A DNA stretch of 49,995 bases from a virus (Duplodnaviria > Heunggongvirae > Uroviricota > Caudoviricetes). The position numbers and the translations under genes are program-made. The stretch covers positions 1 to 49,995 of the IMG/VR virus record IMGVR_UViG_2721755643_000006; one strand, 5' to 3'. Shown here in pieces: positions 38,101-41,520 of this stretch; the first letter of the stretch is position 1; every line of letters begins with the position of its first letter. The notes under the pieces were generated by a model. The model worked only from the letters and a program-made list of their open reading frames with translations, was not told the origin of the DNA and searched no databases.

Positions 38101-38847
38101 CTACTTAACAACCCTCGAATGGCTAACATTCGGACGCCAGCTCTCCCAGTTAAAATTCACCCAGCGCCCGCCGTTCATGACCATGCGATCCATCACCCGC
38201 TCGCCGAGAAGTGTATTCATCGCTGCATGGTTAATATTTGTCAGCATCCCCACACCGCGTAACGATGCCGTCCGGCGATCAACAATCTGGTTCAGTACCA
38301 CCTGCTCGTTTTTCGTATCCCGCTGCATGCCAATTTCATCCAGGACCAGCAGGTCAACACCACAAAGCTCCTGTAAAAATTTTTCACCGGATTTGCCGTT
38401 GTCGTAGCTCTCATGCAACACGCTCATGACATCGGACACGGTGACGATAATCACGCTACGCCCCTTCGCCATCAGCCGGTTGCCAATCGCGGCTGCAAGA
38501 TGATTTTTTCCGGTGCCGGGCTTACCGCTGAACACAAAATTCGTACAGCCTGTCATCAGTTCGTCAGCTATGGATTTCGCCTGACTCAGTGCATGTCGCT
38601 GACCGTCGTTCTGCGCCCGGTAATTCGCAAACGAACACTTCCGGTGCAACGGCTGGATGCCGGAGCGGTTCAGGATTTTTTCCACCCGCAACTGACGATT
38701 CTGACGGTTAATCTCCCTGCAACGCTTCCGACCTTCAGCAAGCTGCCACTCCTGCCATTCTTCCGCCGTCCGGAACAACGGTGTCACGTGCTGCGGTACC
38801 AGCCTGCGAATACGTTCCAGAGCGCCCCCTGACGCAATGTTTTTCAT
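38101..38847 (-). CDS. DnaC-like helicase loader (IstB-type AAA+ ATPase)
   Basis: Walker A FVFSGKPGTGKNHLAAAIG and Walker B LLVLDEIG; Rac YdaV-like. Confidence 0.9.
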   Translation of the reverse strand: MKNIASGGALERIRRLVPQHVTPLFRTAEEWQEWQLAEGRKRCREINRQNRQLRVEKILNRSGIQPLHRKCSFANYRAQNDGQRHALSQAKSIADELMTGCTNFVFSGKPGTGKNHLAAAIGNRLMAKGRSVIIVTVSDVMSVLHESYDNGKSGEKFLQELCGVDLLVLDEIGMQRDTKNEQVVLNQIVDRRTASLRGVGMLTNINHAAMNTLLGERVMDRMVMNGGRWVNFNWESWRPNVSHSRVVK

Positions 38848-38853
38848 GGTACG

Positions 38854-39963
38854 CTACCCCCTGAACCCCGGCGGTATTTCAGTATCCGGTTCAGAAATTT
38901 GATTCACACAACGCTGGTTGTTCGTACCGCTTACCGGGAGCAACCAGGGGTTTTCAAAATTCCGGTCCGGTCCAAAAAACGTCGTCGCTCGCTGAACAAA
39001 TTCCGTTCCCGTTTTCCCGGTAGCCGCCAGATATCTTGCGTAACGCCTCACGCCATCCAGCATGGCCTCTGGTGGCACCCCCTCGCGTAATCTGGCCTTC
39101 CAGGCACTGAAAGCGGATTTCTTCGGGTTTGCCCCGGCACGCAACGGGTACTCCCGCCAGACCTGTTCGAACACGTCCGGATAATCCACTCGTCCCACAG
39201 GCTGCCCGGTGTTTTCCGGGACTACCCAATCGGCTTCCCGCTGAATGGCGGAATCGGCTTCAGGCTGCTGCAGTTGGTGTGATTGCTCCGGCCTTGCGGT
39301 CATCACCTGCTGCACAGCGCCCGAATCGGCTTTCAGCGCATACGCTGAATCGGCTTCCGGTGTCGTGCCTGCTGGCTGACCAGGATTGACGGTCTGAACA
39401 TCCCCTGCCTGGTTCGTGGCGATTTTTTCGCCATGAACCATAGTGTTTTTGTCCTGTTCCTGTTCTTTCTCCTGTTCCTGTTCTTGGCTTCGAAGCCCCT
39501 TTAAAGCCCCTTCGAAGCCCCTTACCGTATTTCGGTTGTTATTTCGCCTTACATCCAGATGAAAATCCGTCTTATATCTGTCATAAAACGCTGAAAGAAA
39601 AGCGTTTTCAGGTAATGACGCATATTCACTCCTGACACCTGCACAACGGTTATCGCCAGGCTTTAACTTTCCCCCAACCTGCCAGGCTGCCATTTCATGG
39701 ACCCAGACCATCTCGGAATCATGGTCATAACTGCAAAAACCCACTTCGACAGCCCTTCGAAGCCCCTTCGAAGCCCCTTCCGGACCAAGCCCGGTTTCAT
39801 GAGCAAGGTACAAAACCGGCAGGTAATACAGGCCCAGCATGTTTGCGTGAGGGGATGTCATCAGGTAAAAAGCAACCACCTGCGCTTCTGCGCCTGCCTT
39901 TCTGAGTTCTTTCCCCGTTTCTCCCAGCCAGAATCGCGGGGAAACTTTTGCGTAATCACGCAT
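38854..39963 (-). CDS. Replication initiation protein (lambda O-like N-terminal domain, YdaU-like)
   Basis: N-terminus MRDYAKVSPRFWLGETGKELRKAGAEAQVVAFYLMTSPHANMLGLYYLPV typical of phage replication initiators; GAGGTG 4 nt upstream; contains iteron-like repeats. Confidence 0.7.
   Translation of the reverse strand: MRDYAKVSPRFWLGETGKELRKAGAEAQVVAFYLMTSPHANMLGLYYLPVLYLAHETGLGPEGASKGLRRAVEVGFCSYDHDSEMVWVHEMAAWQVGGKLKPGDNRCAGVRSEYASLPENAFLSAFYDRYKTDFHLDVRRNNNRNTVRGFEGALKGLRSQEQEQEKEQEQDKNTMVHGEKIATNQAGDVQTVNPGQPAGTTPEADSAYALKADSGAVQQVMTARPEQSHQLQQPEADSAIQREADWVVPENTGQPVGRVDYPDVFEQVWREYPLRAGANPKKSAFSAWKARLREGVPPEAMLDGVRRYARYLAATGKTGTEFVQRATTFFGPDRNFENPWLLPVSGTNNQRCVNQISEPDTEIPPGFRG
39449..39784. 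repeat. Iteron-like repeats inside the O-like gene (candidate origin)
   Basis: Two clusters of CCTTCGAAGCCCC-type repeats (39488-39523 and 39751-39784) plus a CTGTTCCTGTTC repeat (39449-39487). Confidence 0.5.
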
Positions 39964-40184
39964 GTCCACCTCATCTGGTGCCGAACCTTCCTCCGGATAT
40001 AATCTGTGATTCCCCAATCAACAGAACCAGAGGAGGTTCGACATGTCTTTTTTGAAAAGCCTTTATCGGGCTCATATATTAAAAGTTGCAGCAACAAATC
40101 ACTGGCAAGAAGGAACAGATGAAATGTTGCCGGATTACCGGGCATGGCTGCGCGCCGAAACATACCTTCGTCTCGATATGCTGA

Positions 40185-40694
40185 TTAACGATCTTCAAAA
40201 AGAGGCTCCATCCACTCAAACCCTTCAGGGTGTCGGCGCTGTTCGCGTTCTGGTATCTCGCCATAACGCTCTCTCAGTAACTGAAGTGCGTCAGCTTTCT
40301 TTTGCTGAACTGATTTTCTTGCTTCAGCCAGCTCTGGAATCAGTGAATATCCCATCGGAGGTGTTCCGGTATCCGCCCCACGTGAACCAACAGCTACAAG
40401 CTGCACAAGACAACAGGCATGCTGGATTGACTCCCTGCTCAGAGGCTGAATGGGATCATTCTCTGCTGAAGAGATACCAAGATTTGTATAATCCTCAATA
40501 AGCCGGGCGCACGCTTCAGCATCAGCCAGTTTTTTTCTGGTTTCCTTGCGCTGTTCTCTGACGGACAAACGCCAGAGCAGCGCATTGGCTTTATGCATCA
40601 GCCACTCTGCCAGTTCCACATCAGATAAACCGCCACGCCAGATGTGTGGACTGTTTTCGTAAACGCTCAGTGTCAGTTTTTTGTCATTGGTCAT
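40185..40694 (-). CDS. Hypothetical early-right protein
   Basis: 169-aa ORF from MTNDKK in the operon strand; overlapped antisense by ORF 40043-40501, see findings. Confidence 0.45.
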   Translation of the reverse strand: MTNDKKLTLSVYENSPHIWRGGLSDVELAEWLMHKANALLWRLSVREQRKETRKKLADAEACARLIEDYTNLGISSAENDPIQPLSRESIQHACCLVQLVAVGSRGADTGTPPMGYSLIPELAEARKSVQQKKADALQLLRERYGEIPEREQRRHPEGFEWMEPLFEDR

Positions 40695-41418: not shown

Positions 41419-41520
41419 AATTTTTATCTCAGCACATTTAGAACAAGTAAAAGTTTATACGCAACTAAATAAACCAGTCAAGTATTTGCTTGTTTTGCGA
41501 TTACTAAAGATAATGCATGT

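Follow-up and report, generated by a model that had tools for sequence, protein, structure and literature searches.

Where does replication of this prophage begin, and do the short repeats inside its replication-initiator gene mark the place? The window, meaning the whole 49,995-bp stretch of DNA analyzed here, holds a replication module that is carried by a lambdoid E. coli prophage. The gene order on the minus strand was cro-like, cII-like, initiator, DnaC-like, and Ren-like, and neighboring genes were YdaS-, YdaT-, and DUF977-like by Pfam. The initiator gene (38854..39963, minus strand), delimited from the open reading frame and the family alignment, encodes 369 aa. Its start had been listed as a TTG at 40017 and was corrected to the ATG at 39963 on the minus strand, which has GAGGTG 6 nt upstream and at which the family alignment begins (MRDY). 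Directly downstream of the initiator gene lies the gene for a DnaC-like helicase loader (38101..38847, minus strand), whose product matched Pfam IstB_IS21 (9e-19), NCBIfam PRK12377 (2e-150), and PHROG 50; its match to the DnaC equivalog model (4e-95) was under the cut-off of that model.

The initiator matched PHROG 1701 (E 2e-142) and PHROG 3729 (E 4e-136). A Pfam search at E<=1 returned no family; the N-terminal domain is without a Pfam model, and members of the family are at present named 'DNA-binding protein', 'replication protein', or 'hypothetical' by their NCBI sources. A PDB sequence search matched the DnaT tail only. The C-terminal domain (about aa 213-369) ends in this DnaT-like tail; for the C-terminal tail of DnaT itself, no partner is defined in the literature. 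The predicted DNA-binding domain spans aa 1 to about 145. Within it, a winged-helix fold was predicted at aa 25-88 (H1, S1, H2, H3, S2, S3; 39700..39891, minus strand) with moderate confidence (pLDDT 68.7), and the third helix is the predicted recognition helix, as assigned from fold topology alone. In the AF2 model, the helix at aa 60-73 had a pLDDT of about 85-90, and aa 143-165 were below 50. The family occurs in prophages of Gamma- and Betaproteobacteria, and the N-domain was found in 510 of 5,426 complete E. coli genomes, O157:H7 strains among them; strains RMDEC364 and VL46 were 100% identical over the query. Searches gave 1,159 + 517 members of the family. Across relatives, the same N-domain was joined to different C-domains and stood beside different helicase or loader genes.

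The repeats lie within the coding sequence of this gene. The initial annotation had described two clusters there, each with three copies of a repeat of about 13 bp. A sequence check and Tandem Repeats Finder confirmed both clusters and their positions; the repeat unit, however, is 11 bp long, since the quoted 13-mer consisted of one unit plus 2 nt of the neighboring unit, and in the register of the family each cluster comprises four phased units rather than three. Read in gene sense, the unit is nAAGGGGCTTC, with a period of 11 bp, or about one helical turn. Tandem Repeats Finder reported period 11 at 39488-39523 (3.3 copies) and at 39744-39780 (3.4 copies). The exact 12-mer CTTCGAAGCCCC was present in four copies (39488, 39510, 39755, and 39766) and nowhere else in the window, and when up to 2 mismatches were allowed, six of its eight matches in the window fell in the 300-bp stretch that holds the arrays. 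Array 1 (site 1; 39737..39780, minus strand) consists of the four phased 11-bp units GAAGGGGCTTC, GAAGGGGCTTC, GAAGGGCTGTC, and GAAGTGGGTTT, and codes for aa 62-75 (EGASKGLRRAVEVG), the predicted third helix of the winged-helix domain. Array 2 (site 2; 39481..39524, minus strand) also has four phased 11-bp units, namely TAAGGGGCTTC, GAAGGGGCTTT, AAAGGGGCTTC, and a degenerate unit, GAAGCCAAGAA, which was constant across the family, and codes for aa 147-161 in the predicted disordered linker. The two arrays are about 256 bp apart, with a spacer of roughly 210 bp between them. Since 11 is not divisible by 3, successive units are out of codon register and cannot be a peptide repeat.

Conservation of the units was determined in 77 non-redundant homologues with 50-94% aa identity, from Enterobacterales, Acinetobacter, Burkholderiales, Xanthomonadales, and others. 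The loci were retrieved partly by the peptide pattern SQ[ED]QEQ[ED]Q, which borders directly on site 2, and codons S159 and Q160 are therefore to be discounted; the other motif codons were unaffected by the pattern. The normalized synonymous-codon entropy averaged 0.28 in the 20 motif codons, and the average for the 89 other conserved codons was 0.85 (Mann-Whitney p = 1.2e-11), and every one of the 16 lowest-entropy codons of the N-domain fell within sites 1 and 2. At site 1, the preferred codons were GAA for E62 (100%), GGG for G63 (97%), AAG for K66 (100%), GGG for G67 (86%), CTT for L68 (91%), and GAA for E73 (94%); at site 2, they were GAA for E151 (100%), GCC for A152 (100%), CCT for P153 (93%), AAG for K155 (100%), CCC for P156 (91%), and CGA for R158 (92%). 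With up to 1 mismatch, AAGGGGCTTC gave 121 matches between nt 150 and 200 of the gene and 118 between nt 400 and 500, compared with about 1 match per 50-nt bin elsewhere in the 399 kb of loci. The initial annotation had named a merely repetitive peptide, lacking conservation at the DNA level, as the outcome that would speak against an origin; when this comparison was run, the units proved to be conserved at synonymous positions.

The orientation of the units varied among the homologues. Site 1 was in the '+' orientation in 65 of 77 and had no recognizable unit in 8, while site 2 was '-' in 47, '+' in 23, mixed in 3, and without a recognizable unit in 4. The site 2 peptide tracked the orientation, reading A-P-x-K-P-L (APSKPL) when inverted and G-A-x-K-G-L (GASKGL) when direct, and the central triplet of AAGnnnCTT was GGG in 118 cases and CCC in 63. 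The flips at site 2 thus change the peptide, so that conservation applies to the DNA but not to the peptide. Acinetobacter-type loci and one further locus (L067) carried 2-3 extra phased units, in either orientation, in the non-coding leader. The distance between the arrays was 266-315 nt, mostly 278 or 290, and no obvious helical phasing between the arrays was seen in these distances. Taken at the level of sequence comparison, the alignments show that the units are under selection as DNA, independent of their orientation.

More distant relatives provided a second comparison. The initiator of a sister clade (34% identity), represented by Klebsiella phage ST13-OXA48phi12.4 and relatives that share as little as about 50% identity with one another, had a different unit, GAAAGGGTTTC, at both positions and in both orientations; one member had lost site 1 and had five phased units at site 2. 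In all members examined, clade 1 had AAGGGGCTTC and clade 2, the sister clade, had AAAGGGTTTC at both sites, so two specificity classes were seen. In these two clades, the repeat sequence changed along with the initiator lineage, and the change affected both sites together. Tritos, Evi, and similar phages matched the window (97% identity) only in the DNA that runs from 39449 downwards. Tritos has an unrelated N-domain on the same C-domain (hhalign of the window initiator family against it gave a probability of 0.1, with no similarity), and this N-domain was Phage_rep_org_N-like below threshold. Its gene contains two arrays of its own, made of 10-nt GTCACG repeats and 260 nt apart, the second just before the Tritos linker.

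The DNA between and beside the arrays was examined for further elements. An AT-rich unwinding element next to the repeats had been suggested as something to look for, and a dip in composition was indeed found between the arrays and was present across 75 homologues. The AT-rich stretch (39525..39620) has about 35% GC versus about 52% around it; the composition profile placed the 35% dip at about 39530-39619, and at the equivalent place in the 75 homologues the mean GC dip was -0.10, the deepest within +/-900 nt. This stretch is a candidate DNA-unwinding element. It also codes for the conserved protein sequence ENxFLSxFYDRY, and its modest AT-richness could mirror amino-acid composition. On the other side of site 2, a (CAGGAA)n repeat (39444..39485, minus strand; a 6/18-nt repeat in Tandem Repeats Finder) codes for the QEQEQEKEQEQD linker at the junction of the exchangeable N- and C-terminal modules. 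It is the CTGTTC repeat of the initial annotation, which had listed the adjacent CTGTTCCTGTTC repeat along with the two clusters. The comparison gave no support for a place of this repeat in the origin: it is only a peptide-level (Gln-Glu)n linker with unconstrained synonymous sites, its Gln/Glu codons varied freely among homologues (normalized entropy 0.65-1.0), and its length ranged between about 3 and about 19 QE pairs. Next to the linker, within the C-terminal module, is a 31-nt imperfect palindrome, TGGTTCGTGGCGA-TTTTT-TCGCCATGAACCA (39410..39440), which may form a hairpin or act as an accessory element of the origin. Two homologues (L001 and L002) had TTC/GAA replaced by TCC/GGA on both arms with the symmetry kept, and only these two variants were seen. 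A promoter and terminator scan gave counts at chance level and flagged only this palindrome and a pR-like site at 41452-41481. With up to 1 mismatch allowed, no DnaA box was nearer than 7 kb to the arrays, and the count over the window was at chance.

The data suggest that the two arrays are probably iterons bound by the predicted winged-helix N-domain of the initiator and that the prophage replication origin is made up of these arrays plus the AT-rich stretch. The arrays display the general features of iterons, with at least three direct repeats of one unit that are conserved as DNA and helix-phased (period 11). The initial annotation had placed a likely origin inside an O-like gene; the origin reading is supported, and the term 'O-like' applies by position and logic only. 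We infer that the initiator binds the units, that the AT-rich stretch melts, and that replication starts here. After induction, transcription of the rightward-operon type (cro-like to Ren-like, minus strand) would lead to synthesis of the initiator, and its N-domain would fill the 11-bp units head-to-tail, one helical turn apart and thus all on one face of the DNA. With both arrays bound, an oligomeric complex would bend or bridge the spacer of roughly 210 bp, the AT-rich segment at 39525-39620 would melt, and the C-terminal domain would bring in host DnaB via the phage DnaC-like loader. A search of a plasmid collection for signs of autonomous replication gave 10 matches; the sole small record among them (NZ_CP069825.1) was a linear contig with chromosomal genes and so speaks neither for nor against autonomous replication.

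Several other explanations were weighed against this one. The units might be operators or roadblocks by which the initiator, or a different DNA-binding protein of the phage, controls how the replication genes are expressed, or they might act in handcuffing or incompatibility, with the true origin elsewhere. Many iteron initiators, such as plasmid Rep proteins, autoregulate, and the extra units of the Acinetobacter-type loci and L067 lie over the ribosome-binding or leader region, as is typical for autoregulation. In the window and most homologues, however, all units are deep in the coding sequence and away from the promoter, and the layout of two arrays with an AT-rich stretch, as well as the placement at the boundary of N-domain and linker, matches the lambda and SPP1 origins (PMC6316719). 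We therefore consider a purely regulatory function unlikely, although the two roles are compatible and the units could autoregulate instead of, or alongside, initiation. An explanation by recombination, in which the units serve as junction microhomology between phage mosaics and their conservation is a by-product of module exchange, draws on the position of site 2 next to the junction of the N- and C-modules, on the Tritos-like phages that have only the DNA downstream of 39449, and on the pairing of one N-domain with various C-domains and helicase or loader genes. Yet site 1, 250 bp inside the N-module, was conserved just as well, and the flanking synonymous sites were saturated, so the 20-40-bp islands are not recent tracts across orders. 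Recombination also leaves unexplained why the units are strictly phased at 11 bp, flip in orientation, recur in non-coding DNA, and change in concert by clade, and we regard it as quite improbable.

An element acting in RNA, either as local hairpins or through long-range pairing in the mRNA between site 1 and a site 2 of opposite orientation, to control translation or stability, would find its partners in the 47 of 77 homologues whose two sites are reverse complements of each other, where pairing is possible across about 260 nt. The window and 22 other homologues have both sites in the same orientation and are unable to pair, but are equally conserved; an Rfam scan of 38700-40200 at E<=1 gave zero matches, and independence of orientation fits sites in double-stranded DNA, not RNA. 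The chance that RNA is the level of function appears very small. Smaller still, in our judgment, is the chance that the repeats are mere repetitive or conserved peptide without a DNA function, even though EGASKGL at site 1 is conserved as protein in a structured helix and the neighboring CTGTTC repeat truly is a (QE)n peptide linker. The period of 11 does not keep the codon register, synonymous sites were frozen at the two sites only, one DNA motif encoded two different site 2 peptides, and units were also found in non-coding DNA.

If the arrays are the iterons of the origin, then site 1 raises a further possibility, which we put forward tentatively and with some doubt: array 1 might be dual coding, serving as a binding site while also encoding the recognition helix (EGASKGL) that binds it. 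Clade 2 GAAAGGGTTTC differs from GAAGGGGCTTC at two symmetric positions, and the same changes turn the helix from EGASKGL to ERVSKGF (GGG to AGG, GCT to GTT, and CTT to TTT). If dual coding is true, a change in iteron specificity alters the reader in the same mutational step, and such a lock-in could explain both the near-constancy of the 10-mer across bacterial orders and the occurrence of discrete specificity classes only. The locus is a test case for coding sequence that is also constrained as a repeated DNA site, with orientation flips that rewrite the peptide in a disordered linker. It also provides a candidate origin for a common, uncharacterized phage replication module; the 10-mer arrays provide a simple marker with which origins of this initiator module can be annotated, and such an origin is a candidate target for blocking prophage replication. 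In Stx phages, replication control affects toxin output (PMC8044961, PMC7466680).

Among known systems, lambda and SPP1 are precedents for an origin inside the initiator gene (PMC7466680, PMC6316719). As in lambda, the proposed origin is within the initiator gene at the end of the DNA-binding N-domain and linker, combines direct repeats with an AT-rich tract, and belongs to a cro, cII, initiator, helicase-loading partner, and ren-like gene order; in lambda, as here, the origin is passed on together with its reading domain as a single module (PMC7466680). The initiator itself was tried as a lambda O family member and rejected, with no match to Phage_rep_O (PF04492) at E<=1, where the lambda O control gave 5.7e-36, and an hhalign probability of 0.1 for the family profile against lambda O. 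The four lambda iterons are 18 bp long and start 20-24 bp apart, and an origin of this type has at least four internally symmetric iterons of 18-19 bp in a single cluster beside the AT-rich tract, whereas here contiguous 11-bp units form two clusters that flank the AT-rich stretch. The partner of the initiator is P in lambda and a DnaC/IstB-like AAA+ loader here, and, unlike in lambda, one array coincides with the predicted recognition helix. A comparison with Rac/YdaU-type prophages had also been proposed; DUF1376 was absent from the initiator (Pfam, E<=1), and the resemblance to Rac was in gene context only.

Plasmid iterons are usually 17-22 bp long and intergenic, and are read by winged-helix Rep proteins, for example RepA_N initiators; here, by contrast, the units are 11 bp long and inside the initiator coding sequence, with no DnaA box. 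A literature search for the unit sequences gave unrelated primer matches only, no relevant report of 11-bp iterons in prophages came up, and a paper on Pf-5 concerned a different element. In SPP1, the direct repeats bound by G38P lie in its own gene beside an AT-rich element for unwinding, and binding is followed by recruitment of a loader and of a helicase of the DnaB type (PMC6316719). Tritos combines the sub-threshold Phage_rep_org_N resemblance with the same two-array layout as the window. The window initiator had no match to the replisome organizer family PF09681 and matched PHROG 6251 ('replisome organizer') only weakly (E 8e-4); the module also departs from SPP1 in its repeat sequence, its Gram-negative hosts, and its DnaC-like partner.

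A counterpart was found in Stx phages, and the module of the window corresponds to their "Eru4" unit. The Eru4 reference phage is Shigella phage 75/02 Stx, and in the papers defining Eru4 its proteins are labeled 'unknown function' and 'putative helicase', with no description of an origin (PMC8951638). In 75/02 Stx and POCJ13, the initiator is homologous, the next gene is the same DnaC-like gene (annotated DnaC in 75/02 Stx), and both arrays are present. The window initiator gene was 75.8% identical in nucleotides to that of 75/02 Stx over 96% of the gene, with 78.6% aa identity over the N-domain, and site 2 of the Eru4 Stx phages was inverted relative to the window (APSEPL).

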